From positions 484 to 64,483 of the forward strand of contig CBFGIY010000003.1 of the NCBI GenBank assembly GCA_965648935.1: 64,000 bases of DNA, in the 5' to 3' direction. Positions 19,684 to 61,172 of this stretch are shown one piece after another. Below the pieces are notes generated by a model. That model was given only the letters and a program-made list of their open reading frames with translations. It did no database searches and was not told the DNA's origin. The first letter of the stretch is position 1, and each line of letters opens with the position of its first letter. A program made the translations under genes and the position numbers. This DNA comes from a candidate division WOR-3 bacterium (GTDB lineage: Bacteria > Hydrothermota > Tepidihabitantia > Tepidihabitantales > Tepidihabitantaceae).

Positions 19684-19714
19684 GGCTTCTGGCCTTTGGC
19701 TTCTGGCTTCTTCC
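19684..19714. repeat. K/P-coding short repeat element, intergenic copy (between the two ABC exporter genes)
   Basis: + strand GGCTTCTGGCCTTTGGCTTCTGGCTTC. The reverse complement encodes SQKPKARS in the frame of the downstream gene. Confidence 0.6.
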
Positions 19715-19719
19715 GCCAC

Positions 19720-21543
19720 CTAGGCCTGCTCCCCGACATACTGCAGTTCGTACAGCTTCGCGTAGATTCCGGCGCGCGCGAGCAGGTCGTCGTGCGTGCC
19801 CTGCTCGGCAATGCGGCCCTTGTGCACGACCACGACCCGGTCGGCCATCCGTATGGTCGCAAGGCGGTGGGCGACGATGACCGCGGTCCGGCCCCTGAGC
19901 AGCTCTTCCAGGCCCTCCTGGATCAGCGCCTCGGTGCGCGGGTCGACCGACGAGGTGGCTTCGTCCAGTATGAGGATTTCGGGGTCGCGGACCAGGGCCC
20001 GGGCGAACGCGAGAAGCTGGCGCTCGCCCAGCGAGAAGTTGGCCCCGCCCTCGGTGAGCACCGTGTCGTAGCCCTTCTCGAAGCGCATTATCGCGTCGTG
20101 GACCCGACAGCGCCGCGCCGCCGCCATCACCGCCTCGGCCGGTATCGACTCGTCAAGCATGCGCAGGTTGTCCAGCACCGTTCCCGGGAACATCACGACC
20201 TCCTGCGGCACGAACCCGACCGCGCGGCGCAGTCGCTTGCGCCCGAGCGCGCCGATTTCGACCTCGTCGTAGAGGATGCGGCCCTGCTGGTGACGGTAGA
20301 ACTTCAACAGCAGGCTGACGATGGAGCTCTTGCCGCCGCCGGTCTCGCCGACCAGCGCGACCTTCTCGCCCTTGCGGATGACAAGGTCGATGTCCTTGAG
20401 GACGAAGTTCTCGCCGTCGTAAGCGAAGTCCACGTCCTCGATGCGGATGGCCTCTTTCAGCTCCAGCCCGCCCTCTTCGCTTTGGCTTCTGACTTCTGGC
20501 TTCTGGCGTTTGACTTCGCCGTCGAATTCCTCCGGCTCCTGGTCCAGTATCCCTATCGCCCGCTCGGCCGATGCGAACGCGCGCTGCATCATGTTGAGCT
20601 GGTCAGATATCATCCGCAGCGGGCCGAACAGCCGGGTGATGTAGGTGATGAAGAGCACGAGCGTGCCGAGCGTGATCTGGCCCTGCATCGCCCAGGCGCC
20701 GCCCAGCCCGAGCACCAGCCCGATGCCGACGATTTCGCCGAAGTCAACCAGGAACCAGACGATATTCCACAACCCGAACGCCCGCATCTCCTGGCCGTAC
20801 TTGACCCGGTTGAGCTCGTCCATCCGGCGGGCGATGCGCTCCTGCTGGCAGAAGACCTGGATGACCGGCAACCCGCGCAGGGCTTCACTGACGAGGTTGT
20901 TGATCTCGGCGGTCGTCCGCCGCACCGCGATGTAGAGCGGCCGCACGCGCGCGAGGATGAACCGGATGATGAGAACGAAGGGCGGCACGAGCGCCATCAC
21001 GATGAGGTACAGCCGCCAGTCGACCAGCGCCATTATCACGCTCATCCCGACCAGCATCAGCGCGCTCTGCAGCAGCGTCACCGTGGTCTGCGTGAACAGC
21101 ATCTTCAGCGACTCGGTGTCGCTCTCGACCCGCGACATCAGCTTGCCCGCCGGGGTGCCGTCGAAGAAGCGCATCGGCAGCCTGAGCACGTGGGCGAACA
21201 GCGCCTGCTTGAGGTTGGCCGCGCCCGCTTCGCCGACCCGCACGAGCCACACGCCTTGCAGGTACCCGGTGAAGATTATCACGGCCTGCGCCGCCAGGTA
21301 GACGAGCGAGGTCAGAGCCAGGCCCCGCAGATCGGCCTGTGGTATGTTGACGTCGATTGCGCGTTTGATGAGCACCGGGCCGAGCAGGCCCAGCCCGGTG
21401 CTGAGAATCAGCAGGCCGGACGCGGCGGCTATTCGGCCGAGGTAGGGCCGAAAAAAGGGCCACAGCCGCGCGACATAGGTCGAAGCCTTGCCGTGAAGCT
21501 TGCCCTCTTCTTCGCTTTCGAAATCGAAGCCGCCGTGAAACAT
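19720..21543 (-). CDS. ABC transporter ATP-binding/permease fusion (partner half-transporter)
   Basis: 607 aa. TMD plus NBD with GETGGGKSS and LSLGERQLLAFARAL motifs. Carries an in-frame K/P/Q-rich insertion (...KRQKPEVRSQSEEGG...) in the TMD-NBD linker. Confidence 0.9.
   Translation of the reverse strand: MFHGGFDFESEEEGKLHGKASTYVARLWPFFRPYLGRIAAASGLLILSTGLGLLGPVLIKRAIDVNIPQADLRGLALTSLVYLAAQAVIIFTGYLQGVWLVRVGEAGAANLKQALFAHVLRLPMRFFDGTPAGKLMSRVESDTESLKMLFTQTTVTLLQSALMLVGMSVIMALVDWRLYLIVMALVPPFVLIIRFILARVRPLYIAVRRTTAEINNLVSEALRGLPVIQVFCQQERIARRMDELNRVKYGQEMRAFGLWNIVWFLVDFGEIVGIGLVLGLGGAWAMQGQITLGTLVLFITYITRLFGPLRMISDQLNMMQRAFASAERAIGILDQEPEEFDGEVKRQKPEVRSQSEEGGLELKEAIRIEDVDFAYDGENFVLKDIDLVIRKGEKVALVGETGGGKSSIVSLLLKFYRHQQGRILYDEVEIGALGRKRLRRAVGFVPQEVVMFPGTVLDNLRMLDESIPAEAVMAAARRCRVHDAIMRFEKGYDTVLTEGGANFSLGERQLLAFARALVRDPEILILDEATSSVDPRTEALIQEGLEELLRGRTAVIVAHRLATIRMADRVVVVHKGRIAEQGTHDDLLARAGIYAKLYELQYVGEQA
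20478..20518. repeat. same repeat family, in frame within the ABC exporter (19720..21543)
   Basis: CGCTTTGGCTTCTGACTTCTGGCTTCTGGCGTTTGACTTCG. Encodes KRQKPEVRSQSEE on the minus strand. Confidence 0.6.
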
Positions 21544-21602
21544 AAGCCCCCATTATTGCCCGCGGCGGGCAATTGTAAAGACCCGGTGCTACTCGGACCC
21601 GG

Positions 21603-21878
21603 TCAGTTGTCCAGTCGCCAGCGCTTCAGTTCGGCGACCAGCGGCGCGGCCCGGCACTGCGCCTCGGCGCGGGGCAGACCCGCCGCGTCGGACCAGTAGC
21701 CGGCGATGATGTCGCACATCTCGTCGCGCGTCATCTCCGGCCGCGTGAACTCGCCGTCCTGGAAGCAGTAGATGCAGAAGTCGCGGCTCGGGCTGCCGTC
21801 GGCATTGGTGCCGGCGTTGCGGCCCTCGACCAGCGGCAGGCCGCAACTCTGGCAGAGCCGCCCGGTTTGCAGTTCCAC
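21603..21878 (-). CDS. putative zinc-ribbon domain protein
   Basis: AGGAGG RBS and GTG start at 21878 give a 92-aa protein with CQSCGLPL...CIYCFQDGEF, typical of the putative zinc ribbon (Zn_ribbon_2-like) family. The longer ORF-track start is Arg-rich junk. Confidence 0.55.
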   Translation of the reverse strand: MELQTGRLCQSCGLPLVEGRNAGTNADGSPSRDFCIYCFQDGEFTRPEMTRDEMCDIIAGYWSDAAGLPRAEAQCRAAPLVAELKRWRLDN

Positions 21879-21964
21879 GCAGCTACCTCCTGATTGTTGA
21901 GCGCCTGGCTGCAATATACGGCCCGGCCGGCCGGCTGTCAACCGGCAGGACCGCGAACCCGGGC

Positions 21965-22414
21965 TCAGTCCTCGGCCGGCTGGTCCCCGCCTGTGGCCAG
22001 CTCGTGCAGCCGGTCGCGGAACGCGACGTAGCGCACCAGCTCGCCCAGTTCGAAGACGATGTGCGGCCGGGTCAGGTAGTCCGCGCCCGCGGGCAGGGCC
22101 AGCCCGTCGGGCAGGCCGAGCCGGGGCGAGCCGTCGACCGTGAAATTGGCCAGAAAACCGTTATCTCCCAGCCGCTCGTAGGGATAGTACTGCACGCAGA
22201 ACCCCCGGGTCATGTCGTGGTAGAGCAGGTCAACATCGAGCAGCGACTCGTAGCGGCACTTGGGGCAGGAAAACACGTTGACCGTGCCGGCGAGCAGCTG
22301 CTTCTTCGCGTCCGGGTCGAGTGTCACGTTCATCGACCGCCACACCGTCGCCTGCGACTCGGCGCCGCACGCCGGGCACTTCGCCTCAACCTGTTCTCTC
22401 ACCGACACCATCAT
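21965..22414 (-). CDS. CpXC domain protein
   Basis: About 150 aa from an AGGAGGATGATG start. CPACG ... CPKCRY pairs characteristic of the CpXC family. The upstream 160 codons of the ORF-track ORF are junk. Confidence 0.6.
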   Translation of the reverse strand: MMVSVREQVEAKCPACGAESQATVWRSMNVTLDPDAKKQLLAGTVNVFSCPKCRYESLLDVDLLYHDMTRGFCVQYYPYERLGDNGFLANFTVDGSPRLGLPDGLALPAGADYLTRPHIVFELGELVRYVAFRDRLHELATGGDQPAED

Positions 22415-23706: not shown

Positions 23707-24434
23707 CGCGCCGCCGCCTTGAGAAAGACCTCCTCGAGGTTGCGCCCGCCGTGCCGCGCCTTGAGCTCCTCGGGCGTGCCGGTCTCGATTATCTCGCCGG
23801 AACGGATGAGCGCGACCCGGCCGGACAGGAACTCGACCTCGAGCATGTTGTGCGAGGAAAGCAGGACGGTCGTGCCCCCGGCCGCGAACTCCCGGATCCG
23901 GCCCCTGACCTCCATCGAGTTGCCCACGTCCAGGCCCGAGGTCGGCTCGTCGAGTATCGCCAGCTTCGGCCGCATCATCAGGGCCCGTGCCAGCAGGAGC
24001 TTGCGCGCCATCCCCTTGCTGTAGGTCTTCACCTTGTCCGCAAGCCGCGCCCCGAGCCCGGATATCTCCTGCCCGTGCGCGACCATCGCGTCGCGCTCGC
24101 GGCTGTCGCGGGTGTAGAACGTCGCCATGAACCTGAGATAGTCCAGCCCGGACAGGGTCTTGTACGCCCCGGCGTCCTCGGGCAGGTAGCTGATGAGCCG
24201 GCGCACCGCTTCCGGTTCGCGCGCGACATCGTGCCCGAGCACGGTCACGCTGCCCGCGGTCGGCTTGAGCAGGGTTGCGACGATGCGCAGTGTCGTGGTC
24301 TTGCCCGAGCCGTTCGGGCCGATGAGCCCGAATATCTCGCCCGGCCGGATGTCGAAGGAGATACCGCGCAGCGCGCGCAGCCCGCCGTAGTCGCGCACCA
24401 GTTCCCGGACAGCGCACGCGCTCATCGCCGCCAT
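23703..24434 (-). CDS. ABC transporter ATP-binding protein (ABC-2 family)
   Basis: GPNGSGKTT Walker A, LSGGMARKLLLARAL signature, ILDEPTSGLD Walker B. Start chosen at MAAMSA... to avoid overlap with the upstream gene. Confidence 0.8.
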   Translation of the reverse strand: MAAMSACAVRELVRDYGGLRALRGISFDIRPGEIFGLIGPNGSGKTTTLRIVATLLKPTAGSVTVLGHDVAREPEAVRRLISYLPEDAGAYKTLSGLDYLRFMATFYTRDSRERDAMVAHGQEISGLGARLADKVKTYSKGMARKLLLARALMMRPKLAILDEPTSGLDVGNSMEVRGRIREFAAGGTTVLLSSHNMLEVEFLSGRVALIRSGEIIETGTPEELKARHGGRNLEEVFLKAAAR

Positions 24435-24462
24435 TCTAGTCGCCCGTGCCCGGCGTGTAAAG

Positions 24463-25896: not shown

Positions 25897-26003
25897 GGTT
25901 CAAGCTAGGCCGCTGTGCGGCCGCTGTCAACCCCGCCGTTGACTGCCCGGCCGCGGCGGCTAGTCTGTCTTCAAGTTACCCGGAAAGGAACCCGCCGCCA
26001 CCG

Positions 26004-28364: not shown

Positions 28365-28411
28365 CCTTCTGCGCCGCGCGCCTCAGGCGCTGCGCGCGGA
28401 AAGCCCGGCTT

Positions 28412-30067: not shown

Positions 30068-32895
30068 CGCGCACCCCCGCGCCGGCTGTCCACCGCCGTC
30101 TTCGTCTTGGCGGGCCTGGTTTTGGCCTTCCGCCCCCCGGCCTTCGGCTTCGGGCTTCTCGGCGATTCGATCGCCGCCTGCGCCGCGGCCAGCCGCGCGA
30201 TGGGCACGCGGAACGGGCTGCAGCTCACGTAGTCCATTCCGACTCGCCAGCAGAACTTCACCGACTCCGGGTCGCCGCCGTGCTCGCCGCAGATGCCGAC
30301 CTTCAGTCCGGGCCGGGCCGCGCGGCCGCGCTCGACCGCGGTCTGTATCAGCGCGCCCACCGCCTTCTGGTCAATCGTCTGGAACGGGTCGGCCGCCAGC
30401 AGCCGCTTTTCGAGGTACTCGGGCAGGAACCCGCCGATGTCGTCGCGGCTGAACCCGAAAGTCATCTGGGTCAGGTCATTGGTGCCGAAAGAGAAGAACT
30501 CGGCCGCGCGCGCCATCTCGTCGGCCAGCAGCGCGGCCCGCGGTATCTCGATCATCGTGCCGACAAGATGCGGGATGCGCCGGCGCCCGGCCCTGCGGCA
30601 GACCTCGTCGTGCACCCGCGCGATGATTGCGTTCTGGTGCTCCAGCTCTTTCGCATCGCAGGTCACCGGCACCATTATCTCCGGATCCGGGTGCTTGCCC
30701 TCGGCCAGCAGTTCCGCCGCCGCCTCGAAAATCGCCCGCGCCTGCATCTCGGTGACCTCGGGGTAGGTGATGCCCAGGCGCACCCCGCGGTGCCCCATCA
30801 TCGGGTTGGTCTCGCGCAGCTCGTCGCCGCGCCGGGCGACCTCCTCGGGCGTCACGCTCAGCGCCGCGGCCAGCGCCGCCTGCTTGTCCTCGGCCTGCGG
30901 CACGAACTCGTGCAGCGGCGGATCGAGCAGCCGGATGGTGACCGGCAAACCGTCCATCGCCTCGAGCGTGCCCTTGACCACGGCCTTCACGTGGCCGAAC
31001 AGCTCGTCGAGCGCGGCCCGCCGCTCCGCTTCGGTCTTGGAGAGAATCATCTTGCGCAGCAGGAACAGCGGCTGGTCACTGCCCTTGCCATAGAACATGT
31101 GCTCGGTGCGGAACAGCCCGATGCCGCCCGCCCCGAACCGCCGCGCGAGCGCCGCATCCGCGGGTGTCTCGGCATTGGTGCGCACAGTCATCCGGCGGTA
31201 CTTGTCGGCCAGCTTCATGAAGCCCTGGAACCGCGGCTGCTCGCTCGCGTCCATCGTCGCGAGCTGACCCGAGTACACCCGGCCGCGCGTGCCGTTCAGG
31301 CTCAGCCAGTCGCCCTCGGCGACCGTCCGGCCGCCGATAACCAGCGCCTTCGCGCCGGCGTCGACCTTGGCGTTCTTCGCCCCGACGATGCAGCACTTGC
31401 CCCAGCCGCGCGCCACGAGCGCCGCGTGCGAGGTCATCCCGCCGCGCGCGGTGAGAATCCCGGCCGCGGCCCGCATCCCGTCGATGTCCTCGGGACTGGT
31501 CTCCTCGCGCACGAGAATCACCTTCTCCCCGCGCCGCGCCCACTCGACCGCGTCGGCCGCCGTGAACACGGCCTGGCCCACCGCCCCGCCCGGCCCGGCC
31601 GGCAGGCCCTCGCCCAGCAGCGTCGCGCCCTTCTCCGCGGCCGGGTCGAGAATCGGGTGCAGCAGCTCGTCGAGCTGGGCCGGCTTGACCCGCAACACCG
31701 CGGTCCGCTCGTCGATGAGCTTCTCTTTGAGCATGTCCATCGCGACGTTCATCGCCGCGACCCCGGTGCGCTTGCCGGTGCGCGTCTGGAGCATGTACAG
31801 CCTGCCGTTCTCGATCGTGAACTCGAGGTCCTGCATGTCGCGGAAATGCTTCTCCAGCCGGCGCCGGTACCGGTCGAGCTCGGCGTAGAGCTCGGGCATC
31901 GCCTCCTCGAGACTCTCCATCGTCTCGTTGCTCGAGTTGCGGCTCGCGCGGTTCAGCGGGTTGGGCGTGCGGATACCCGCGACCACGTCCTCGCCCTGCG
32001 CATTGCGCAGCCACTCGCCGTAGAACTGCGCGGCGCCGGTCGCCGGGTTGCGCGTGAACGCCACCCCGGTCGCCGAGGTCTCGCCCAGGTTGCCGAACAC
32101 CATCGCCTGCACGTTCACCGCGGTGCCCCAGTCGTCGGGCAGCCCCTCGATGCGCCGGTAGCTCACCGCGCGCCTGCCGTTCCAGCTCGCGAACACCGCG
32201 CGGATGCTTCCCCAGAGCTGCTCTCTGGGGTCCTCGGGGAACGGCCGGCCGAAAACCTCGGCGATGCGCGACTTGAACGCGGCGCACAGCCCCTTCAGGT
32301 CCTCGGCGGTCAGCTCGGCGTCGGTCCGGCGGCCCGTGCGCTCCTTGACGCCGTTCATCAGCGCCTCGAGCTGGGCGCGGATGCCCCGGCCCTCTTCCGG
32401 CTCGATGCCCTCGGCCTTCTCCATCACCACGTCGGCGTACATCATCAGGAGCCGCCGGTACGCATCGTAGGCAAACCGCTCGTCCCCGGTCATCGCCGCC
32501 AGCCCGGGCAGGGTCCGCTCGCACAACCCGATGTTGAGCACGGTCTCCATCATCCCGGGCATCGAAGCGCGCGCCCCGGACCGGCAGGACAGAAGCAGCG
32601 GCGATTTCGGGTCGCCGAACCGCCGGCCCATCGCCGCCTCGATGAACTCGATTCCCCGCCTGACCTCCTCGGTCAGGCCCGGCGGGTACTTGCCGGTTCT
32701 CATGTAGTACACGCACGCGGCGGTCGTGATGGTGATGCCGGCCGGCACCGGCAGGCCGAGCCGGGCCATCTCGGCCAGGTTCGCGCCCTTGCCGCCCAGG
32801 AGGTCGCGCATCTCGGCCGAGCCGTCGGCCTTGCCGCGCCCGAAACGATACACGGACTTCACGGTCGGAGTCCTCTTCTTGATTGCGGGTTTCAT
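30064..32895 (-). CDS. ppdK: pyruvate, phosphate dikinase
   Basis: 943 aa. N-terminus MK...SVYRFG..GGKGANLAEMARLGLPVPAGITITT, PEP-utilizing central His domain and C-terminal TIM barrel. Extra C-terminal K/P-rich tail (...SPRSPKPKAGGRKAKTRPAKTKTAV...). Overlaps pckA by 4 nt. Confidence 0.9.
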   Translation of the reverse strand: MKPAIKKRTPTVKSVYRFGRGKADGSAEMRDLLGGKGANLAEMARLGLPVPAGITITTAACVYYMRTGKYPPGLTEEVRRGIEFIEAAMGRRFGDPKSPLLLSCRSGARASMPGMMETVLNIGLCERTLPGLAAMTGDERFAYDAYRRLLMMYADVVMEKAEGIEPEEGRGIRAQLEALMNGVKERTGRRTDAELTAEDLKGLCAAFKSRIAEVFGRPFPEDPREQLWGSIRAVFASWNGRRAVSYRRIEGLPDDWGTAVNVQAMVFGNLGETSATGVAFTRNPATGAAQFYGEWLRNAQGEDVVAGIRTPNPLNRASRNSSNETMESLEEAMPELYAELDRYRRRLEKHFRDMQDLEFTIENGRLYMLQTRTGKRTGVAAMNVAMDMLKEKLIDERTAVLRVKPAQLDELLHPILDPAAEKGATLLGEGLPAGPGGAVGQAVFTAADAVEWARRGEKVILVREETSPEDIDGMRAAAGILTARGGMTSHAALVARGWGKCCIVGAKNAKVDAGAKALVIGGRTVAEGDWLSLNGTRGRVYSGQLATMDASEQPRFQGFMKLADKYRRMTVRTNAETPADAALARRFGAGGIGLFRTEHMFYGKGSDQPLFLLRKMILSKTEAERRAALDELFGHVKAVVKGTLEAMDGLPVTIRLLDPPLHEFVPQAEDKQAALAAALSVTPEEVARRGDELRETNPMMGHRGVRLGITYPEVTEMQARAIFEAAAELLAEGKHPDPEIMVPVTCDAKELEHQNAIIARVHDEVCRRAGRRRIPHLVGTMIEIPRAALLADEMARAAEFFSFGTNDLTQMTFGFSRDDIGGFLPEYLEKRLLAADPFQTIDQKAVGALIQTAVERGRAARPGLKVGICGEHGGDPESVKFCWRVGMDYVSCSPFRVPIARLAAAQAAIESPRSPKPKAGGRKAKTRPAKTKTAVDSRRGGAR
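30111..30155. repeat. degenerate GC-shifted copy of the repeat forming the ppdK C-terminal tail
   Basis: GGTTTTGGCCTTCCGCCCCCCGGCCTTCGGCTTCGGGCTTC. Encodes PKPKAGGRKAKTRPAK. Confidence 0.4.
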
Positions 32896-33966: not shown

Positions 33967-35970
33967 CTACATCGTCTCACCCTTTTTCTTAAGCAGGTGC
34001 TCGAGATTGCCACGCACTATTCTCGTACTCGGATGGTCGACACCCAAGGCCTTCTCCACTATCTCCAGCGCGCGACGGTACAGCGGCTCCGCCTCAGCAT
34101 ACCTGCTCTGCGCATAGAGCAGCCCCGCAAGGTTGTTCAGGCCAGTGGCGATTGACGGATGGCCCTCAGGAAGTGCCTTCTCGTCTATCTCCAGCGCGCG
34201 ACGGTACAGCGGCTCCGCCTCAGTATACTTGCCCTGGAACGCAAGCAGCCCCGCAAGGTTGTTCAGGCTGGTGGCGATGTCGGGATGGCCCTCAGGCAAG
34301 GCCTTCTCGCGCATCTCCAGCGCGCGACGGTACAGCGGCTCCGCCTCAGTATACTTGCCCTGGGACTCAAGCAGCCCCGCAAGGTTGTTCAGGCACGACG
34401 CCACCTTGGGGTCACTTGGGCCAAGTTCCGATTCGAGTGACGCGGCAAGCTCACGATACTGCGGGAGAACCTCGCCCCACAGAGCCGCATCAGTGAACCG
34501 CCGCGCGGGCTTCCAGTACCAGTTGTACAACTCGTTCGCAGTAAGCACAGCCTTGCCGTGATGGAACGCCTCGACCAGCGCCGCGGCGTGGACAGGGGTG
34601 ATGTTCTTCACATCAAGGTCCTGCACCTGTGCCGAGTAGCGGTCAAAGAGCCATCGATGCACCCGCCGCACCAACTCGGACTCGGTGTACGCCAACAGCG
34701 ACTCGCGCATCAACTGGTGCATCGTGTAACTGCCGGGAAGCGCGCCCTCATTGATAAACGAGAACCGGCACAAGCGGTCAAACGCTGTTACCGGGTAGCC
34801 GGTCCGAAACTCCGTCAGCAGGAGTTTGAACAGGTCGCGGTCAAAGAACCGCGGCACTGCCAGCACTTTCAGGGTCTCGCTCTCGACATCACCCAAGTGG
34901 CGCAGGAATCGCACGAACAACTCGCGTGGCTGTTCGCCGAAGTCTTCCGGACCGGGCGTCCCGCCCGCGGCGGCAATCTCCTCATAGGTGTCCACGGCGA
35001 GGTCGAGGTAGAATGGCACGCCCTTACTGCCGGCAATGATGGCCCTGCGAACACTCGCGTCGGGCACGCCGCAGGACTGCAGGAACCGGTCGCAGTCGGC
35101 TTCTGCCAGGCCGCCGACGAGATGTTGGCTCAGGCACCCGCGCCAGTCGGAGTCTGCCTCGTCCCAGCGCAGCTTCTCGCGGCCACAGATTACCCACAGC
35201 GCCTCGGGCAGTTGCGCCACCAGCTCCCGCACCCACGCCTCAAGCTCGTGCACCCTCCCCTCGGCCCGTTCTGCCTGGACCAGTGCCTCGAATGTGTCGA
35301 TGCACACGACCGCGGTGCCGCCTGCCTTCTCCAGATGCTCCCGAACGTCTGCGGCCCAGAACGCCGGTAGCCACTCCCGCACCTCGGCCGGCTCCTTCAT
35401 CCTGCACAGCGCGGCCAGTTCGCTCTGCCCGCGCTTCGTCAGCCACTCCACCAGCTTCGCCTCGCCCTTGGCGTACGCCCTGGCCAGCGCCGGCAGCAGC
35501 CCCACGATTGGCACGCTGGTGAGAATCGAAGCCGCATTGGCAACCAGCGAGCTCTCGTCGTAGAAAGGAATCGTCGCCGCGCTCATCGGCGTGGTTGGCC
35601 GGGCCAGCTTCCAGTACACGGCGTACGCTATGTCGAACCGACGGAAGTCCACCCCGTGCTCCCGGCCGAGTGACTGCCTGAGTGATGCGAGCGCCGCGTC
35701 GGGTTCGCGCAGCGATGGCTCCGCGAAGTCAAGCACCGCCATCGGCAGCTCGGGCTGTGCCGCGGCCAGCCCCTGCATCAGCTCCTTGCGCAGTCGGGTC
35801 TTGCCGATGCCGCCGATGCCGTACAGCACGAAGACGCGCTGTTCTTTCGGATTGCTGACCTTCTCGGCCAGCGCGACCTTGAAAGCGGCAAGAAATGACT
35901 CGCGGTCGGTGAACTGGCGCGCGGCGACCGGACGGTCGCCGCAGAGTTGGTGCTTCGGCTTAGGCGGCAT
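33967..35970 (-). CDS. STAND-class P-loop NTPase (NB-ARC/AAA-like) fused to TPR (TPR_10/12-type) repeats
   Basis: 667 aa. Walker A VLYGIGGIGKTRL near the N-terminus, Walker B-like VVCIDTFEA, helical arm, then at least five 42-aa TPR units (NNLAGLL..QGKYTEAEPLYRRALEI.EKALG..HP). AAAGGAG RBS 8 nt before the ATG. Confidence 0.8.
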   Translation of the reverse strand: MPPKPKHQLCGDRPVAARQFTDRESFLAAFKVALAEKVSNPKEQRVFVLYGIGGIGKTRLRKELMQGLAAAQPELPMAVLDFAEPSLREPDAALASLRQSLGREHGVDFRRFDIAYAVYWKLARPTTPMSAATIPFYDESSLVANAASILTSVPIVGLLPALARAYAKGEAKLVEWLTKRGQSELAALCRMKEPAEVREWLPAFWAADVREHLEKAGGTAVVCIDTFEALVQAERAEGRVHELEAWVRELVAQLPEALWVICGREKLRWDEADSDWRGCLSQHLVGGLAEADCDRFLQSCGVPDASVRRAIIAGSKGVPFYLDLAVDTYEEIAAAGGTPGPEDFGEQPRELFVRFLRHLGDVESETLKVLAVPRFFDRDLFKLLLTEFRTGYPVTAFDRLCRFSFINEGALPGSYTMHQLMRESLLAYTESELVRRVHRWLFDRYSAQVQDLDVKNITPVHAAALVEAFHHGKAVLTANELYNWYWKPARRFTDAALWGEVLPQYRELAASLESELGPSDPKVASCLNNLAGLLESQGKYTEAEPLYRRALEMREKALPEGHPDIATSLNNLAGLLAFQGKYTEAEPLYRRALEIDEKALPEGHPSIATGLNNLAGLLYAQSRYAEAEPLYRRALEIVEKALGVDHPSTRIVRGNLEHLLKKKGETM
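34040..34430. repeat. three near-identical 126-bp tandem units (TPR-coding) inside the STAND NTPase gene
   Basis: ...CTCCAGCGCGCGACGGTACAGCGGCTCCGCCTCAG(C/T)ATAC(C/T)TGC... recurs at about 34060, 34186 and 34312 with more than 90% identity. Confidence 0.6.
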
Positions 35971-48062: not shown

Positions 48063-51000
48063 CTAGTCGAGCAGGGCCTTGATTTCCCGGTAGATGTTCT
48101 CGGACAAGAACCCGCGCACGTCGATGGCCAGCGACCGGCAGTTGGCCGCGCACGCGCCACAGCCCTTGCACAGCGCCTCGTTGACCACGGCCGCGCGCTT
48201 GCCGAACCGCTCGTTCACGACCTTGACCTCGATGGCGCGATAGGGGCACAGCGCCTCGCACATCCCGCAGGCCGAACAGCGCGACTGGTCCACCTGCGCC
48301 ACCGTCGCCTCGGCTTCGAGCTCGTCGCGCGACAGCACGGTCGCGGCCCGGCCCGCTGCGGCCCGCGCCTGTGCCACCGCCTCGTCGATGAACTTGGGGA
48401 AGTGGCACAGCCCGGCCATGAACACGCCCTCGGTCGCGAAATCGACCGGCCTGAGTTTGGCGTGCGCCTCGAGGAAGAACCCGTCGGCGTTGAGCGGCAC
48501 CTTCAGCATCTTGGCCAGCTCTTCGGAATCCTCCAGCGGCACCACGCCCGACGACAGCGCCAGCAGGTCGGGGCGCAATTCGACCGTCTCGCCGAGCACG
48601 GGGTCAAACACGGTTACCGACAATGTCGATTTGCGATTGTCGATTGTCGACTCCCCGCCTTCGCTTTGGCATTTGACTTTTGGCTTCTGGCTTCTGGCTT
48701 CGTCCTCGATGACGTTGACGTCCGGCTTCCGTTCCGGTGTGTACCGGATGAAGACCACGCCCTGCTCGCGCGCCTTGCGGTAATGTTCCTCGCGCAGGCC
48801 GTAGGTGCGGATGTCGCGGTAGAGCACGTAGACCTCGGCCTCAGGGTTCAGCGCCTTGACTGCAAGCGCGTTCTTCACCGCCTCGGCGCAGCAGACCCGC
48901 GAGCAGTAGGGCCGGTCCGGTTCGCGCGAACCCACGCACTGAATCATCACGACCCGCTGGGTGGCCTTCACCTTCGCCGGCTCGCGCTCGACCAGCTCTT
49001 CCAATTCCTGCTGGGTGACTATCGCCGGACTCCTGCCGTACTCGTACTCGGTCGGCGTGCGATACTTGGCCCCGGTCGCAACCACGACCACGCCGTGCTT
49101 CACGATCTCGCTTCCCGCCGCGCTCTCGACCGTGGTCTGGAAGTTGCCAACGAACCCATCGATCGCCTTGATGCGCGCGCCGGTGATTACCTTGATGCGC
49201 GGCTCGGCCGCGACCTTCGCCTCGAGTTCCTTCAACCGCGCCTGCACGTCGGTGCCGTCAATCGAATGCCATATCCGGCGCGCGGTGCCGCCGAGTTCGC
49301 TCTCGCGCTCGACCAGCGTGACGTCGAACCCTTCGGCCGCTATCGCCAGCGCCGCGGCCATCCCGGCCACGCCGCCGCCGACTACCAGTGCCGACTTGGT
49401 CACCGGCAGTTTCACCTTGGACAGCGGCGCCTGGCGCACCGCGCGGGCGATTGCCATCCGCACGAGGTCCTTGGCCTTTTCGGTCGCGGCTTCGGGCTCT
49501 TTCATATGCACCCAGGAACACTGGTCCCGGATGTTGGCCATCGCGAAGAGCTGCGGATTCAGGCCCGCCTCGGCGCAGGTCGCCTGAAACAGCGGCTCGT
49601 GCGTGCGCGGCGAGCAGGACGCGACCACGACCCGGTTCAGCCGGTGCTCACGGATTCTGTCCTTGATTCGCTCCTGCGTATCCCCGGAGCAGGAGTACAG
49701 GTTCTCCTCGACGTGGACCACGAAGGGCAGCGACTTCGCGTACTCGACCACCGCCGGCACGTTGACGATGCCGCCGATGTTCACACCGCAGTGGCAGATG
49801 AACGCCCCGATGCGCGGCGCGTCACCGCGCACGTCGGTTTCGGCCGGCACCTGTTTCTCGCGCGCGAGCTGGCCGCGCTCCTCGGCCAGTATCCCCTCTG
49901 CGACGGCGGCCGCGCCCGACGCCTCGGTCACGGTCTCAGGGATCGCCATCGGCGACTGGAAACTGCCCGCCACGGCCACGCCCGGCCGGGAAGAGCCCAC
50001 CGGGTCCCAGTCGTCGCCGAGCACGAACCCGAACCGGTCCAGTTCGACATCCAGCCGCCGGCCCAGCTCGACCAGCTCGGGCGGCGGCACCAGCCCGCAG
50101 GAGAGCACGACCATGTCGAACCGCTCGGACCGCGCGCCGTCGTCCCCGGCATAGCGCAGTATCAGGTCGCGCGTTTCCGGGTCCTCGCGCACCTCGGGCA
50201 CGCGCGCGCGCACCAGCCGCACGCCGTACTGGGCCTGGGCCCGGTCCACGTAGCGGTCAAAATCCTTGCCGTACGAGCGCATGTCCATATAGAACACCGA
50301 CGGCTCGACATCGCGGCAGTGCTCGCGCGTGATGACCGCCTCTTTCACCGCGTACATGCAGCACATCGCCGAGCAGTAGCCGCGCTCGACCGAGTCGTCG
50401 CGCGAACCGACGCACTGCAGCCAGGCGATGCGCTTCGGCTCGCGGCCGTCCGACGGCCGCCTGACGTGGCCGCCGTACGGACCGGACGCCGACAGAATCC
50501 GCTCGTACTCGAGCGAAGTCACGACGTTGGGATAACGGCCGTGACCGTACTCCGCTCGCAGGCTCGTCGGCGCGATTCGCGACCCGGCCGCGACCACGAC
50601 CGAGCCGACCTCAATCTCAAACTCCTCGTCCTGCTGGGTGTAGTCAATCGCCCCGGCCTTGCAGTTCTTCTGGCAGGCGCCGCAGCGGTCCTTGGTGAAC
50701 TTCAGGCACGCGGCCCGGTCAATGGTCGGCGCGTTGGGCACGGCCTGCGCGTAGAGCTGGTAAATCGCGCGGCGCTTGCTCAGGCCGCCCTCGAATTCGT
50801 TGGGCAAATCGCGCACCGGGCACTTGGCGATGCAGTCGCCGCAGCCGGTGCACTTGCCCAGGTCCACCGACCGCGCCCGCTTGAGCAGTTTCACCCTGAA
50901 CCGGCCCGGCTCGCCCTCGACCGACAAGACCTCGGTCAGGGTATGCAACTCGATATTGTTGTGCCGGCCTGCGGCCACCAGCTTGGGCGACAGGATGCAC

Positions 51001-51224: not shown

Positions 51225-51984
51225 TCTGCTTCTCCGCCCGTTCCAGCGCCGCCAGGCCCGGCGGGTAGCAGTACCCGTCTTCCTGGGCCAGCTCGCGGAT
51301 AGCGTTCATAATCTGGTTGATGTTCACGCCCTGCGGACAGCGCGACATGCAGCGGAAATGGGTCGCGCAGGCGTCCTTGAACTCATCGGCCAGCGCCTGC
51401 TCGCGCAAGCCCAGGTTGACCAGCCGGACAAACCGGCGCGGGTCCTTCTTCTCATCCATCAGCGTTTCCGGGCAGACCGCGGTGCACGAGCCGCAGGTGA
51501 AGCACCGTCCGGCCTCGGGCGACCGGGCCAGCACCTCGGCTTTGAACGCGCGGTCCAGTTCGTCCTGAGTGACACTCTCGGGCCGGCCGTCAGCCCGCGC
51601 CTGCCGCACTTCGTCGGCAATCTGCGCCACCGCGTCGGCGACCTGGCCGATGTTCACCCCCTGCGGACAGCGGTGCAGGCAGGTGTAGTGATAGGAGCAG
51701 ATCCAGACAAACTCGGACCGGTAGACTTCCTCCTTCAGTCCCATCAGGGCCATCCGGATGATGCGGCGCGGGTTGTACTTCTCTTCCAGCCGGCGCACCG
51801 GACAGGACGCCGAGCACTGGCCGCAGGACAGGCAGTGCATGAACCCCGAGTCGCCCAGCTTCTCTGCCAGCCGGTACTTGAAATCGAGGTCCAGCTCGTT
51901 GACGAGCAGTTCCTCGCCGGTGTCCTCGTTTTGGCTTTTGGCCTTTGGCTTTTGGCCTTTGGCTTCGTTCGTCAAATCTATCAC
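51217..51984 (-). CDS. HdrC-like iron-sulfur protein (two CxxCxxCxxxCP...CP modules)
   Basis: About 255 aa from a GTG overlapping the upstream stop (GTGA). CLSCGQCSASCP...CLHRCPQG and CFTCGSCTAVCP...CMSRCPQG. N-terminus carries the in-frame repeat insertion (NEAKGQKPKAKSQNED). The upstream 350 codons of the 606-aa ORF-track ORF are antisense-overlap junk. Confidence 0.65.
   Translation of the reverse strand: MIDLTNEAKGQKPKAKSQNEDTGEELLVNELDLDFKYRLAEKLGDSGFMHCLSCGQCSASCPVRRLEEKYNPRRIIRMALMGLKEEVYRSEFVWICSYHYTCLHRCPQGVNIGQVADAVAQIADEVRQARADGRPESVTQDELDRAFKAEVLARSPEAGRCFTCGSCTAVCPETLMDEKKDPRRFVRLVNLGLREQALADEFKDACATHFRCMSRCPQGVNINQIMNAIRELAQEDGYCYPPGLAALERAEKQNG
51927..51967. repeat. K/P-coding repeat, in frame at the N-terminus of the HdrC-like gene
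   Basis: CGTTTTGGCTTTTGGCCTTTGGCTTTTGGCCTTTGGCTTCG. Encodes EAKGQKPKAKSQN. Confidence 0.65.
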
Positions 51985-53102: not shown

Positions 53103-53109
53103 CGCCGCC

Positions 53110-53532: not shown

Positions 53533-53553
53533 CTACAGGCCTCCGATATCCAG

Positions 53554-53577
53554 GTCAAAAGCCAAAAGCCAAAACTC
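53554..53577. repeat. K/P-coding repeat, intergenic copy upstream of mvhD (opposite orientation)
   Basis: + strand GTCAAAAGCCAAAAGCCAAAACTC. In a + frame it would read VKSQKPKLK. Confidence 0.55.
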
Positions 53578-53639
53578 AAATGTCAGAACCGACCGCCCGG
53601 TAAGTTGCACTGTGCCTGTTACACTCTGCACTTTGCTTC

Positions 53640-56600: not shown

Positions 56601-58139
56601 AATCACCGTGTCGGCCGGCACGAAACCCTCGTTGCAGGTGTTGAACTCGGGGTTGAACCGCTTCTGGTCGTCGAACACGCGGGTGCACTCGACCGTGCGC
56701 AGGCCGGTCACCTTGCCGTCCTTGCCCGTGATGCCCTGCGGGCCCCAAGACGGTTGGATGGCGATACCCTCGGCCAGCGCCTCCTCAATCTCGTACTCAA
56801 ACGCCGGCATCTCTTCGCGGCACTCGAGGCAGACCATCGTCACCTTCTCGGCCCCGGCCCGCTTCGCGGTCATCGCCACGTCAACCGCGACGTTGCCGCC
56901 GCCGATGACCACGACTTCCTTGCCCGTCTCAAGCGGCTTGCCCTCGCTTGCGGCGCGCAGGTACTCGATGCCGAGGTGCACGCCCTCAAGCTCCGCGCCC
57001 TCGATCTTCAGGCCGCGGCTCTTCTGCGCCCCGAACCCGAGGAACACCGCCTTGTACCCGTCGGCCTTGAGCCTCTCGACCTCGGCCGCGGACTTCACCG
57101 GCGAGCCCAGCTTCAGCTCGACCCCGGTGTCGGTGATGTCCTTAATCTCGCGGTCGAGAACCTCGCGCGGCAGCCGGTACGCCGGGATGCCCCAGCGCAT
57201 CATCCCGCCTGCCTTGTGCCCGGCCTCAAGCACGGTCACATCGTAACCGAGCAGGCGCAGGTCCAGCGCGCAGGTCAGGCCGGCCGGCCCGGCCCCGACC
57301 ACCGCGACCCTGCCCGACCGCTGCACGGCCTGGGCGTCGAGCCGGATCTTCTCCGCGTCCGGTGTCTTGCGCTCGGCATAGGATGCCGGCCCCTGCGCGA
57401 AAGCGAAGTCGGACGCGAACCGCTTGAGCGTCCGTATCGCCACCGGGCCTTCGTACTCCTTGCGGTTGCACTCGGCTTCGCACGGGTGGTGGCAGACCCG
57501 GCCGCAGATGCCCGGGAACGGCAGCCGGTCGCGCACGAGTTCATAGGCTTCCTTGAACTTGCGCTGGCCGATGAGCGCGACATAGCCCTGCGCGTTCACG
57601 CCCGACGGGCAGGCGAGCCGGCAGGGCGCTTTGGCCTCGTTCTTGTCCACGGCCACCGCATTCGGGATGGCCTGCGGGTAGAGCTTGAAGACCGCGCGGC
57701 GGTCGGCCAGCTTCTGGTTGTAGGTGTCGGGCACGCTCACCGGGCAGACCTTGGTGCAGTCCAGGCACCCGGTGCACTTGTCCAGCAGCACGAACCGGGG
57801 CTTGTGCCTGATGCGCGCGCGGAAGTGTCCCGGCTCGCCCTCAAGCGACAGCAGTTCGGAGTAGTTCAGAAGCTCGATGTTCTGGTGCCGGCCCGTGCCC
57901 ACCAGCTTGGGCGCGAGGATGCACATCGAGCAGTCGTTGGTCGGGAATGTCTTGTCGAGCATCGCCATCACGCCGCCGATGGCGGGCGATTCGTCGAGCA
58001 GGTAGACCTTGTACCCGGCGTCGCCCAGCTCCAGCGCGGCCTGGATTCCGCCGATGCCAGAACCAACCACCAGCACCGCGCCGACCTTACCATCCGCGTT
58101 TCGGGTTTCGGAACTCGGGTTTCGGATTTGGTCGCTCAT
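53640..58139 (-). CDS. HdrL-like giant fusion: HdrA N-terminal module + NfnB/GltD-like NAD(P)H oxidoreductase + complete HdrA
   Basis: 1499 aa. Residues 1-270 are HdrA-like (DKTFPTNDCSMCILAPKLV). Residues 280-720 match glutamate synthase small subunit/NfnB (CRLACPSGVNAQGY...FPGICGRVCHHPCEAEC; VAVVGAGPAGLTCALDL...GGMMRWGIPAYRLP). Then an HdrA cysteine cluster CSSVCCMYATKEA, CNCGINIGG, a second FAD domain, CCTESVKNA and C-terminal ferredoxins. Separated from hdrA by 3 nt. Confidence 0.85.
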   Translation of the reverse strand: MSDQIRNPSSETRNADGKVGAVLVVGSGIGGIQAALELGDAGYKVYLLDESPAIGGVMAMLDKTFPTNDCSMCILAPKLVGTGRHQNIELLNYSELLSLEGEPGHFRARIRHKPRFVLLDKCTGCLDCTKVCPVSVPDTYNQKLADRRAVFKLYPQAIPNAVAVDKNEAKAPCRLACPSGVNAQGYVALIGQRKFKEAYELVRDRLPFPGICGRVCHHPCEAECNRKEYEGPVAIRTLKRFASDFAFAQGPASYAERKTPDAEKIRLDAQAVQRSGRVAVVGAGPAGLTCALDLRLLGYDVTVLEAGHKAGGMMRWGIPAYRLPREVLDREIKDITDTGVELKLGSPVKSAAEVERLKADGYKAVFLGFGAQKSRGLKIEGAELEGVHLGIEYLRAASEGKPLETGKEVVVIGGGNVAVDVAMTAKRAGAEKVTMVCLECREEMPAFEYEIEEALAEGIAIQPSWGPQGITGKDGKVTGLRTVECTRVFDDQKRFNPEFNTCNEGFVPADTVILAIGQAVDADGFEGFERGPGGTFKVDKLTLQTSVPGVFAGGDMVSGPASVIEAVAAGHEAAISIDRFIRGEDLKAGRDEPKPRAAKADESAAARAKIRRVERAREAVLPVAERGQSYREIGLGFDEETAVREAQRCLNCGVCSECFQCVTACEAKAIDHSQTARESEVEVGAVVLSAGFKEYKPTADLGFGYGRYANVVTSLEFERILSATGPYEGHVRRPSDGKQPKKVAWIQCVGSRNQEHYYCSSVCCMYATKEAVIAREHCGGNLDCHVYYMDMRCFGKDFEKYYQRAQDEYGVVYRRCKVSSLKRVEGGEDLVIAYENEAGELKEETYDMVVVSTALSADPRVAELANRIGVKTDEQGFVRTDPFEPVLTSRPGVYACGALVEPKDIPETVTEATGVAAAVGSLLAASRNTLVQPKRYPPQRDVSGEEPRIGVFVCNCGINIGGVVKVPSVVEYARTLPGVVLADDNLFTCSQDTQQKIRQAIEEHRLNRVVVASCTPRTHEPLFQETLAEAGLNPHLFTMANIRDQCSWVHMQNPEEATAKSRELVRMAVANARLLRALDSSPQTVTQKALVIGGGLAGMTAALAIADQGFAVYLVERSRELGGRLRQLRYTDGGEDVGGLLVRLEQRVRAHPQVRVFTGAELVAVSGYVGNYRSRLRSADGETELEHGVFVVATGASEYRPTEYLYGADERVMTQTELETMIVDRPDAVKQAKHVVMVQCVGSREPEHPWCSRVCCTESVKNALRIKALNPRANVVILYRDMRTYGFKEALYRDARAAGVMFVRFDPETKPVVSQRDGRLHVTVYDPVLQRRLGIDADILALSAGVVPGETNHALGQLLKVPLNEDGFFLEAHMKLRPVDFTTRGVFMAGMAHSPRRIPETVTQAQAAAARACSILSHKELSTDAVVAEVNPRWCVGCGVCEEVCQYEAARVNPATGKSEVTAVLCQGCGACAAACPAEAIKLKGFEARNVLSMIDAAL
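58096..58131. repeat. degenerate copy at the hdrL-like N-terminus
   Basis: GCGTTTCGGGTTTCGGAACTCGGGTTTCGGATTTGG. Encodes NPSSETRNADGK. Confidence 0.35.
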
Positions 58140-58142
58140 CGG

Positions 58143-60161: not shown

Positions 60162-60179
60162 CGTCTACCAGCCCGCTCC

Positions 60180-60224
60180 GCAGTTTTGGCATCTGACCTT
60201 TGGCTTTTGGCCTTTGACTTTGCC
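60180..60224. repeat. K/P-coding repeat, intergenic copy between hdrB and hdrA
   Basis: GCAGTTTTGGCATCTGACCTTTGGCTTTTGGCCTTTGACTTTGCC. The minus strand would read MAGKVKGQKPKVRCQNCGAGW as a 21-codon mini-ORF. Confidence 0.55.
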
Positions 60225-60233
60225 CGCCATGCC

Positions 60234-61172
60234 CTAAATAAGCCCTTTCTCCTTCAGGAACTTCTCTGCCCCGGGCCCGTTGTAGTCGAGACCGAGTTGA
60301 GAGACGTCCAGCCCGACTGCCAGCCCGATCAGTTGCGTGAAGTAGAACACGGGCAGACCCGACCCGGCCTCACGCGCCGGCTTGTCCAGGTTGTACTGGC
60401 ACAGCGGGCAGGTCGTGACAATCGCCTCGGCGCCGTAGGCCCGGGCGTTGTCGACAATCTTCTTCGACGCCGCGGCCGCCACCTCGCGCCGGTTCACCAC
60501 GAGGTAACCGCCGCAGCACTCGGCCTTGAAGTCGAACCGCACCGGCTCGGCCCCGAGCGCGCTCATCAGGTCGTCCATCACGACCGGGTTTTCCGGGTCG
60601 TCGAAGCTAAGCACTTCCTTGGGCCGCACCATCAGGCAACCGTAGTACGAAGCGACCTTCAGGCCCGAGAGCGGCTTGGTCACCTTCGCCTTCAGCGCCT
60701 CGAACCCGATGTCGCGCTTGAGCACGTCGAGGTAATGGACCACCTCGACGCGATGCTCGAACGGTTCGTCCACAAACGCGAGCACCCGCTCGCGCAGCGT
60801 CTCGTTGCCCTGAGTGTCGAGCCAGTCCTGCGTGCGCTTGAGCACGTTGTAGCACGCCGCGCACAAGGTCACCAGCTTGCCCGATGTGCGACTTTCCTCG
60901 GCCTGGTCCGTGCCTTCGCTTTGACCTTTGGCTTTTGGCTTTTGGCTTTTGACTTGTTCCGCGATCTGTTGGCTCGCCTTCGCCAGGTTGCGCACCGGCC
61001 CGACCAGCGCCGCGAGGTCGTCGCTCGCGGTGTTGTAGATGGCGCCGCAGCAGTTCCACGACGGCATCTCCTCAAGCGTGAACCCGACCCGCTCGGCCGC
61101 GGCGCGCGCGCAGTCGTCCAGGTTCTTCGCCTTGGTGTAGAGCGTGCAGCCCGGGTAGTAGACGTATTCCAT
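60234..61172 (-). CDS. hdrB: heterodisulfide reductase subunit B (two CCG domains)
   Basis: 312 aa. YYPGC...NCCG and YYGC...CCGG CCG-domain cysteine patterns. In-frame repeat insertion (...VKSQKPKAKGQSEGTDQAEE...) between the two CCG domains. Confidence 0.85.
   Translation of the reverse strand: MEYVYYPGCTLYTKAKNLDDCARAAAERVGFTLEEMPSWNCCGAIYNTASDDLAALVGPVRNLAKASQQIAEQVKSQKPKAKGQSEGTDQAEESRTSGKLVTLCAACYNVLKRTQDWLDTQGNETLRERVLAFVDEPFEHRVEVVHYLDVLKRDIGFEALKAKVTKPLSGLKVASYYGCLMVRPKEVLSFDDPENPVVMDDLMSALGAEPVRFDFKAECCGGYLVVNRREVAAAASKKIVDNARAYGAEAIVTTCPLCQYNLDKPAREAGSGLPVFYFTQLIGLAVGLDVSQLGLDYNGPGAEKFLKEKGLI
60917..60956. repeat. K/P-coding repeat, in frame within hdrB
   Basis: CGCTTTGACCTTTGGCTTTTGGCTTTTGGCTTTTGACTTG. 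Encodes VKSQKPKAKGQSE. Confidence 0.65.

Follow-up and report, generated by a model that had tools for sequence, protein, structure and literature searches.

The 64,000-nt stretch analysed here (the window), positions 484 to 64,483 of contig CBFGIY010000003.1 from a candidate division WOR-3 bacterium (assembly GCA_965648935.1), carries a dispersed low-GC repeat that lies in frame within several redox and transport genes and also in the spacers between genes. Our analysis showed that the core of this repeat is a 35-nt array of five imperfect heptanucleotide units. The repeat is a member of a known but unexplained class of dispersed heptanucleotide sequences, from which it differs by its five-unit length, a leader with a start codon, a common reading phase and a high share of translated copies. 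With moderate confidence, we regard the arrays as a family of modules resembling the short tandemly repeated repetitive (STRR) sequences, which would have been copied between sites and tolerated where they are translated, and whose probable source is a cassette carrying a gene of the IVP family (PF05635). Loci and proteins compared with the window are denoted by L- and P-numbers, respectively.

The heptanucleotide array and its copies

An earlier note, made from the sequence alone, had described nine copies of a microsatellite-like 17-nt unit in this DNA, whose GC content is 64-72% throughout. We searched the window with the 17-mer, allowing up to three mismatches, and obtained 16 matches in nine clusters against 0.10 expected from shuffled sequences, confirming that a dispersed low-GC repeat is present far above chance. 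The unit itself proved to be another one. Tandem Repeats Finder detected period-7 arrays at 19680, 20486, 48677, 51929, 53556, 60184 and 60920, and the unit on the minus strand is a heptanucleotide, G[CT]CA[AG]A[AGT] (consensus GYCARAR), of 7 nt and not 17. The units form discrete arrays of five with the pattern GTCARAR GCCAAAR GCCAAAR GYCARAT GYCAAAR.

A sequence-only model was built from alignment A5 (23 copies from the window and its relatives), and the whole window was scanned with it without filters. The results showed seven copies at 39-65 bits (E 2e-11 to 3e-19), all of which belonged to the training set of the model; the scan found nothing significant in the window beyond these seven, the next best match having E = 0.84. 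Of the nine copies described earlier, the ppdK tail is not significant and the array at 58098 is a different heptamer. Six of the seven copies are sense to the genes and the seventh is antisense. Four lie inside annotated genes, two in mini-ORFs (small open reading frames) and one, the antisense copy, upstream of mvhD. The earlier count of five copies inside coding sequences included the array in the gene for the 1499-aa HdrA, which is built from a CCGAAAC-like heptamer. A search against Rfam 15 gave no match at gathering score anywhere in the window.

The number of units is nearly constant. Exactly five units (35 nt) were found in 25 of the 29 non-redundant arrays of the clade, counting the window and its relatives and including non-coding arrays. 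The fourth unit ends in T (GYCARAT) in four window copies and in many copies of relatives; it ends in G or A in the HdrB, HdrC-like and ABC-exporter copies. Between unrelated genes and non-coding spacers, the 35-nt sequence is 63-84% identical in register. GC-rich or hairpin modules often follow the array, and further copies are present in every sizeable locus of close relatives. The copies and the related features of the window are as follows.

60919-60953, minus strand: array in hdrB (60234-61172); 57.3 bits, E 5e-17
about 60888-60968, minus strand: lineage-specific hdrB insert of 81 nt (27 codons) encoding QIAEQVKSQKPKAKGQSEGTDQAEESRTS, with the array as its core
60165-60230, minus strand: 21-codon mini-ORF between hdrB and hdrA, encoding MAGKVKGQKPKVRCQNCGAGW and a stop, with the array at 60184-60218; 64.7 bits, E 3e-19
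58098-58129, minus strand: array at the N-terminus of the 1499-aa HdrA, about four units of another, CCGAAAC-like heptamer; no match to the main-family model
53554-53588, plus strand: five-unit array upstream of mvhD, opposite to the genes; 54.4 bits, E 4e-16
51929-51963, minus strand: five-unit array that encodes the HdrC-like N-terminus; 58.2 bits, E 3e-17
48624-48698, minus strand: composite insert in the gene for the 1053-aa HdrA-like protein; 58.3 bits, E 3e-17
30108-30160, minus strand: C-terminal tail of ppdK, rich in K, P and A and matched once by the 17-mer with 3 mismatches; 3.6 bits, E = 2.9
20480-20514, minus strand: five-unit array in the ABC-exporter gene 19720-21543; 53.8 bits, E 7e-16
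19654-19719, minus strand: 21-codon mini-ORF between the two ABC-exporter genes, encoding VAEEARSQRPEAGTAGRTKRA and a stop, with the array at 19680-19714; 39.2 bits, E 2e-11

Pfam agreed with the gene identities given earlier. The genes, all on the minus strand, encode two ABC exporters (17915-19657 and 19720-21543), ppdK, the 1053-aa HdrA-like protein, the HdrC-like 4Fe-4S protein, an FrhB/Fer4 protein, MvhD, the 1499-aa HdrA fusion, HdrA and HdrB. The named homologs of the window proteins are from "candidate division WOR-3 bacterium" at 61-77% identity, and domains of the type IX secretion system sorting type are present in window proteins. The ppdK tail, described earlier as a degenerate copy, was rejected: its score is not significant and it shows no clear autocorrelation at lag 7, so that it would at best be a decayed copy. 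Two other tandem repeats were observed in the window. One is a perfect 8-nt repeat, (TCGGTCTG)3, at 62791-62814. The other, at 34045-34394, is a 126-nt repeat of 2.8 copies within the ORF 33967-35970 (minus strand), and consists of ordinary 42-residue TPR_10/TPR_12 repeats.

Reading phase, leader and insertion sites

The coding copies had been reported to lie in the one frame that yields a common peptide. This sameness is automatic: the sense array encodes the same cyclic heptapeptide, A-K-S-Q-K-P-K, without a stop in all three frames, because 7 and 3 share no factor. The opposite strand would encode F-W-L-L-A-F-G, and GTC units bring in TGA on that strand, so a strand bias in coding sequence is expected from selection alone. 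A genuine bias lies in the phase. In alignment A5, every sense copy of the clade reads the GYC of unit 1 as a codon, and the 12 nt upstream of the array are homologous between sense copies, with the leader [start codon] GCG GAC GAA. The N-terminal and mini-ORF copies read ATG/GTG/TTG GCG GAC GAA, and the leaders of the internal copies are ATC GCG GAA CAA in HdrB, ATC GAG GAC GAA in the 1053-aa HdrA-like protein and TTC GAC GGC GAA in the ABC exporter. The probability of one common phase by chance is about (1/3)^8 for nine independent sites, and 1/9 for the three internal sites alone. Since the three phases encode the same residues, selection on the peptide cannot explain the common phase. Judged from these alignments, the phase and the leader point to copying of a phased module that natively bore a start codon.

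We examined the junctions at which the spacer copies lie. The mini-ORF at 60165-60230 begins 3 nt past the hdrB stop (60234) and ends 3 nt short of the hdrA ATG (60161); it is kept in L001 and tandemly duplicated in L123. The mini-ORF at 19654-19719 begins right after the TAG of the upstream ABC gene, and a GTGA overlap joins its end to the start of the downstream ABC gene (19657). These two intergenic copies could indeed encode the same peptide as the genic ones, as had been proposed, whereas the mvhD copy is antisense to the genes and would yield no K-rich peptide on their strand. In the mRNA, the mvhD copy is a U-rich tract that ends about 9 nt upstream of the mvhD GGAGG (mvhD start 53532), and in L136, a relative with just 66% HdrB identity, mvhD is preceded by an array placed in the same way. 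The start codon of the HdrC-like gene is GTG or TTG (51984/51975) and overlaps the upstream stop; past the array, an ATG right before the first CxxCxxC motif is the sole further in-frame start.

Two further observations concern the hdrB-hdrA junction. An in-frame TAG of the mini-ORF lies two codons upstream of the hdrA ATG in the window (60162-60167), L001, L123 and L125, and read-through of it would fuse the mini-ORF to HdrA. In L125 (positions 1-110 of Ga0105093_10129118, 1248 nt), the 3' end of hdrB and the start of the mini-ORF are followed by the array and then by the middle of hdrB, which is probably a repeat-induced assembly join.

The earlier description of the element as non-palindromic held. 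It is a direct repeat with a minimum free energy of folding of 0 to -7.5 kcal/mol, where the background averages -9.65. On the transcript strand, the least-structured 14% of 35-mers include six of the seven arrays; the HdrC-like copy (51929) lies at the 67th percentile.

Alignment with orthologs, which the earlier note had suggested as a check, showed that the in-frame inserts are lineage-specific. HdrB orthologs are typically 285-286 aa long. The insert is carried by the window protein, P0001 (96% identical) and P0002 (89% identical, with a 35-residue version), and is absent from P0003-P0006, which are 93-94% identical outside it. The empty hdrB site in L123 reads AGC CAG CTC GGG GAT AAG. In L002, the hdrB insert is 105 nt long and consists of a 15-nt leader, the 35-nt array and a 55-nt module with two small hairpins (GCGACCGCGAAGGCGGTCGTCCTGAGCGAAGCGAAGGACCTCACGCGGA). 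This module of about 55 nt also follows the array in the hdrA N-terminus of L123 and L125, indicating that a longer segment was copied between sites. At the DNA level, the window, L001 and L002 agree in unit number both in hdrB and in the hdrB-hdrA spacer, and their arrays there differ by substitutions only.

ABC-exporter orthologs at 82-100% identity carry the insert, which most of those at 71% or less (592-596 aa) lack. The protein is 607 aa long in the window and in five orthologs aligned at 82-91%, with many substitutions and constant length; P0131-P0134 (69-72% identity) have different, mostly longer variants at the same site. The array separates the transmembrane domain (Pfam 44-309) from the ATPase domain (382-531). 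Phase variation was considered and rejected, because the unit number is constant in these orthologous copies: the arrays of the window, L001 and L002 show substitutions only and the exporter stays at 607 aa.

The insert of the 1053-aa HdrA-like protein is absent from the equivalent site of the 1499-aa paralog, as described before. It is composite: a short spacer joins the five-unit GYCARAR array (48664-48698) to a heptamer array of the ATCGACA type (48624-48650). The same pairing of arrays occurs in the hdrA N-terminus of L123. At its upstream edge (5' in the mRNA sense, 48700-48716), the sequence ACGTCAACGTCA contains a perfect 6-nt tandem duplication (ACGTCA) that the paralog is without, and this may be a junction footprint. 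In the HdrC-like family, basal orthologs begin directly at ELLxNxLD, and N-terminal extensions elsewhere are variable or absent. Many HdrC-like orthologs of the WOR-3 type carry unrelated-looking low-complexity extensions of similar flavour at both termini (P0257, P0263, P0265, P0267, P0283 and P0288, for example KGQRDKVAE...LDPSIPRSLDPS and the C-terminal DRSKSDGRS). On sequence grounds, these suggest further repeat families at the same hot spots.

We modelled HdrB with AlphaFold (AF2), obtaining a predicted template modelling score of 0.86 and a mean predicted local distance difference test score (pLDDT) of 84.6. The first part of the 27-residue insert lengthens a helix in the model, residues 82-95 have pLDDT below 50, and the array corresponds to residues 74-85. 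The solved HdrB chains 7BKB_B and 5ODC_B align to window residues 2-67 and 100-307, so the insert stands in for about 5 residues of the solved structures. It falls between CC41-42 and C104xxC107 and therefore lies inside the first CCG motif, not between the CCG domains as had been thought. With a loop of low predicted order replacing so few residues, the insertion sites do look permissive in the model.

Arrays in other phyla and beside IVP genes

The motif is not confined to this lineage. We scanned one genome per species for three GYCAAAR units and found at least 120 loci, in cyanobacteria, Bacteroidota, Acidobacteriota, Patescibacteria, Chloroflexota and Gammaproteobacteria. Among the matches listed, the arrays have 3 to 33 units (mode 4-5) and frequently adjoin small tetraloop hairpins or arrays built from other heptamers; of 142 arrays, 31 fall within sense ORFs of 200 codons or more and 1 is antisense. 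Translated GYCAAAR is thus not peculiar to the WOR-3 lineage. The translated arrays of other phyla, again among the matches listed, use all three phases (15:8:8). Long sense ORFs containing (GTCAAAA)n with VKSQKSKVKSQK-type segments were observed in Patescibacteria (L035, L040, L045, L046, L061, L080 and L081) and also in L038 (Dapis), L011, L051 and L086. The motif was present in 61 viral contigs, none of which carried an IVP gene, a result that is uninformative.

In relatives of the window, arrays flank a gene of PF05635. This gene (115-135 aa) lies between hdrA and the gene for the large HdrA in L002 and in the more distant relatives L128, L131, L132 and L139. In L002, L131 and L132, it starts with the module itself (ATG ACG GAC GAA GCC AAA ...); L128 and L139 have a forward array within a short ORF immediately upstream of it. 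An inverted five-unit array was found within a few bases of the IVP stop in all five loci. The arms of the cassette pair in several registers, so column-wise covariation is not meaningful and duplex energies were used; the predicted arm-to-arm duplexes have -37 to -51 kcal/mol, compared with about -20 for shuffled arms. At this position the window has only a 1-nt gene overlap and no IVP gene, its arrays being solo ones. The CCGAAAC-like array at 58098-58129 lies where relatives carry the cassette, and the 1499-aa HdrA has about 10 aa more at its N-terminus than its counterparts in L002, L128, L131 and L139. A decayed 3' end of an IVP gene was sought upstream of mvhD and rejected, the alignment being unconvincing.

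The association of IVP genes with heptamer arrays was also seen on plasmids. A tblastn search of PLSDB with an IVP protein returned 20 plasmids, 18 of them cyanobacterial, and we sampled 10 IVP loci (9 cyanobacterial and 1 from Gemmatirosa, Gemmatimonadota). Tandem arrays of short units within about 130 nt bracket nine of the 10 genes; eight of these have period 7 and the Gemmatirosa locus has period 8. At seven of the 10 genes, the arrays are inverted pairs, each with its own heptamer: AGTAGGG/CCCTACT, GGGAACA/TGTTCCC, AAAGGGA/TCCCTTT, GGCAGAA/TTCTGCC, TCAGGAG/CTCCTGA, GGGTGTA/TACACCC and an AGCTAAA type. In Pseudanabaena, the IVP gene lies between cas6 and cas4 and is preceded by 14 AAAAGCT units and followed by 10 AAAAGCC units. 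In one of these plasmids, a stretch of 50 kb taken as a control contained four period-7 arrays in all, one of them beside its IVP gene.

Several further observations were made at these loci. Bracketed PF05635 genes, annotated "four helix bundle / S23 ribosomal protein", occur on the plasmids L153-L163 and at L103:4300-4900 and L021:100-700. One plasmid carries two different heptamers at its IVP genes. IVP genes sit between operon genes, namely cas6 and cas4, the beta and alpha genes of ribonucleotide reductase, and genes of a type I secretion system. In Nostoc edaphicum pNe_5 (L163:31639-31850), inverted GGCAGAG/CTCTGCC arrays stand about 130 nt apart with no gene between them, possibly as a cassette that is empty or lacks its cargo. 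A literature search returned no paper linking four-helix-bundle genes to heptamer repeats.

Origin of the arrays and relation to known repeats

Cyanobacterial heptanucleotide repeats were reportedly described, under the STRR name, in 1990. The earlier note knew of no described equivalent of the present element, but dispersed heptanucleotide families are documented: TAACTGA in Beggiatoaceae and cyanobacteria, GGGAATC in Xanthomonas and GGGGAYT in Nostoc (PMC4679880, PMC4692102). A passage of PMC4692102 also cites three tandemly repeated heptanucleotides in Calothrix PCC 7601. The arrays share with this class the 7-nt units, short arrays, one motif at many loci, frequent location within about 50 nt of gene starts or ends, occurrence of the motif in distant phyla, a 7-aa periodic peptide in any frame, and an unexplained origin and function (PMC4679880, PMC4692102). 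The location near gene ends applies in part: three spacer copies adjoin a downstream start, and a fourth codes for an N-terminus. They differ in that their length is essentially fixed at five units, while described families vary in unit number; in that over half of the window copies are translated, while described families are reported to be scarcer than expected within coding sequences; and in their homologous leader with a start codon and single reading phase. A literature search with the doubled motif returned nothing on bacterial repeats and only one unrelated paper on fission-yeast genome editing.

The earlier note had compared the element with the Rickettsia palindromic elements (RPEs), which are palindromes of about 100-150 nt and not tandem repeats. 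Ogata et al. reportedly described in 2000 that RPEs are inserted in frame into unrelated conserved genes. The comparison holds as an analogy: both are short dispersed repeats placed in frame in unrelated conserved genes, lineage-specific, located at permissive sites and made part of the protein. The structural side of the comparison fails, since the present element is a non-palindromic 35-nt direct array with little self-structure and not a palindromic hairpin, and its stop-free sense frames follow automatically from its sequence. Leader mini-ORF coupling, familiar from natural coupled cistrons and synthetic "bicistronic designs", is resembled by the junction ORFs, which begin at the upstream stop and end overlapping (GTGA) or 3 nt before the next start. 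Here, however, the leader is a dispersed repeat that also lies inside genes, and coupling is suggested by the geometry. Phase-variable contingency loci likewise have in-gene tandem repeats with a unit length that is not a multiple of three; the present units are imperfect, their number is constant in orthologs, and they reside in core redox and transport genes rather than in those for surface antigens.

Two further systems bear on the cassette and on spread. IVP ORFs occur in insertions of rRNA genes (bioRxiv 10.1101/2024.02.27.582315). Like the intervening sequences (IVS) of 23S rRNA that carry a PF05635 (IVP/"S23p"/Avd-like) ORF, the cassette of the relatives has a gene of about 120-135 aa between stem-forming inverted repeats, in a transcribed unit with intact flanking genes; unlike them, it lies between protein-coding cistrons, its arms are heptamer arrays and its stem is a predicted one. 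REPINs (REP doublets forming hairpins), mobilised by RAYT transposases, and miniature inverted-repeat transposable elements (MITEs) are also very short, non-autonomous sequences dispersed at high copy number within a genome (PMC3116915). These are based on inverted repeats, extragenic and served by an identified transposase, whereas the solo arrays show no terminal inverted repeats and no clear target-site duplication, and no such enzyme was found among the window ORFs scanned.

On the reading we favour, the fixed length, the common pattern, the homologous leader and trailing modules and the stable unit number argue that the module reached new sites by copying and did not grow in place by slippage. 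Its A-rich strand is free of stops in any frame and always encodes a hydrophilic, disordered peptide of K, Q, S, P and A. Sense copies arriving in surface loops, linkers and termini, with a total length divisible by three, would be tolerated and inherited, and those inside genes would be neutral; as a harmless sense-strand sequence, the module would therefore survive in Hdr and ABC genes and a strand bias would arise. At cistron junctions, it would persist as a 21-codon leader mini-ORF or an N-terminal extension and, in opposite orientation, as a U-rich tract right upstream of a ribosome-binding site. The junction copies may have been co-opted as an unstructured region for translation initiation or coupling in a transcript of 67% GC; such a role is plausible because of the mini-ORF geometry, the placement of the reverse copy and the low predicted structure of six of the seven arrays. 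Non-coding arrays conserved in distant relatives agree with this role, or else with concerted evolution. The source would probably be an IVS-like cassette with an Avd-like four-helix-bundle gene (PF05635), which has the module at its start and an inverted copy after it.

Several results weigh against this account. Non-coding arrays, both downstream of the IVP gene and upstream of mvhD (L136), keep their length and pattern at 66% HdrB identity, which fits selection or concerted evolution better than pure neutrality. At hdrB, the one well-resolved pair of filled and empty sites, no clear target-site duplication is visible, at most CAG being shared, and the large window ORFs that were scanned included no transposase, reverse transcriptase or integrase. 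The forward array upstream of the IVP gene in L128 and L139 is in a different phase, and the common-phase rule is therefore not universal. Within the clade, the IVP cassette is a single orthologous insertion, which makes it one data point for the lineage, and most arrays in the loci of other phyla (about 1 Mb among the matches listed) have no IVP gene near them: these loci held three IVP genes, none adjoining a strict array. The converse does hold, arrays being found beside the IVP genes sampled on plasmids. The material comprised 64 kb of this genome and short pieces of its relatives.

The arrays could instead be mainly functional cis-elements under selection, acting as unstructured A-rich or U-rich initiation, standby or coupling regions or as protein-binding sites, with the internal copies as by-products. 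We consider this a possible but rather doubtful account. Three of the seven copies (19680, 53554, 60184) lie in spacers directly upstream of a start or ribosome-binding site, and an N-terminus is encoded by a fourth (51929); both mini-ORFs have exactly 21 codons and end at or overlap the next start; the reverse mvhD copy is kept in L136 and the IVP-flanking arrays are kept at 66% HdrB identity; and the five-unit length is fixed even in non-coding copies, with low predicted structure. Candidate binders in heptamer register are the pentameric IVP protein, with one unit per protomer, or a protein of the cold-shock type. Avd is a pentamer (PMC6182149), and five chains make up the entry 2RLD, the solved homolog closest to IVP. 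A part in translation has been proposed for TAACTGA heptamers that precede start codons, and CspB binds heptamer repeats with one protein per unit (PMC4679880). Such a role is hard to reconcile with the three copies deep inside genes (HdrB, HdrA-like and ABC exporter), where no part in initiation is apparent, with the ABC-exporter peptide, which drifts freely among orthologs at the amino-acid level, and with the 3 to 33 units of the same motif among the matches listed from other phyla. The cassette itself could instead be central: the arrays would be the cis-acting ends or recognition sites of widespread IVS-like cassettes, whose protein would make or move them, perhaps in partnership with a reverse transcriptase, as happens in diversity-generating retroelements. 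The five-unit array would then offer one heptamer to each protomer of a pentameric Avd-like protein, inverted arrays would bracket the cassette, and solo arrays, including the translated ones in Hdr and ABC genes, would be footprints or non-autonomous derivatives. This we hold to be unlikely.

The evidence from array length bears on growth in place. Heptanucleotide simple sequence repeats (SSRs) are the most abundant class of long SSRs in many large high-GC genomes, and slippage has been proposed for them (PMC4679880, PMC4692102); the array lengths of the same motif are very variable among the matches listed from other phyla; and the paralog reads GTCAGCCAGCGCGA, a weak proto-repeat, at the HdrA-like site. 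Independent slippage at each site, with the motif reflecting a preference of the polymerase and nothing being copied, is nevertheless improbable given the five units in 25 of 29 arrays, the T of the fourth unit shared by four window copies and many copies of relatives, the homology of leader and trailing modules beyond the repeat, and the agreement of the window, L001 and L002 in unit number, in hdrB as well as in the hdrB-hdrA spacer; imperfect units, moreover, suppress slippage. It is very improbable that the K/P/Q-rich segments are ancestral low-complexity linkers with a function at the protein level and no DNA element behind them, one of the two outcomes that the earlier note had named as refuting its reading. 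The segments do lie in linkers, loops and termini, and some HdrC-like and ABC-exporter orthologs of other sub-lineages have different low-complexity segments at the same sites. The same 35-nt DNA, however, occurs in unrelated genes and in non-coding spacers (E down to 3e-19), one non-coding copy runs antisense, and orthologous sites in close relatives are empty. The other such outcome, that the copies are chimeras made by an assembler confused by the short repeat, has an apparent instance in L125, which alone looks like a join, and is extremely improbable for the rest: long ORFs stay in frame through all coding copies, the hdrB insert and the spacer copy occupy the same positions in the window, GCA_965649225.1 and JGI 3300040734, which are independent assemblies, and the ABC-exporter insert is found in five orthologs from several sources.

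The repeat inflates conserved enzymes with low-complexity loops, makes mini-ORFs at cistron junctions and can mislead short-read assemblers. It is a natural example of how a stop-free DNA repeat of period 7 can enter proteins without penalty. The leader with its start codon suggests portable modules for the start of translation, copied around a high-GC genome. The bracketing of Avd-like genes by heptamer arrays, in this lineage and on cyanobacterial plasmids, is the most consequential lead. If it is true genome-wide, both the origin of heptanucleotide repeats and the role of a very common protein family would become accessible to tests for the first time.

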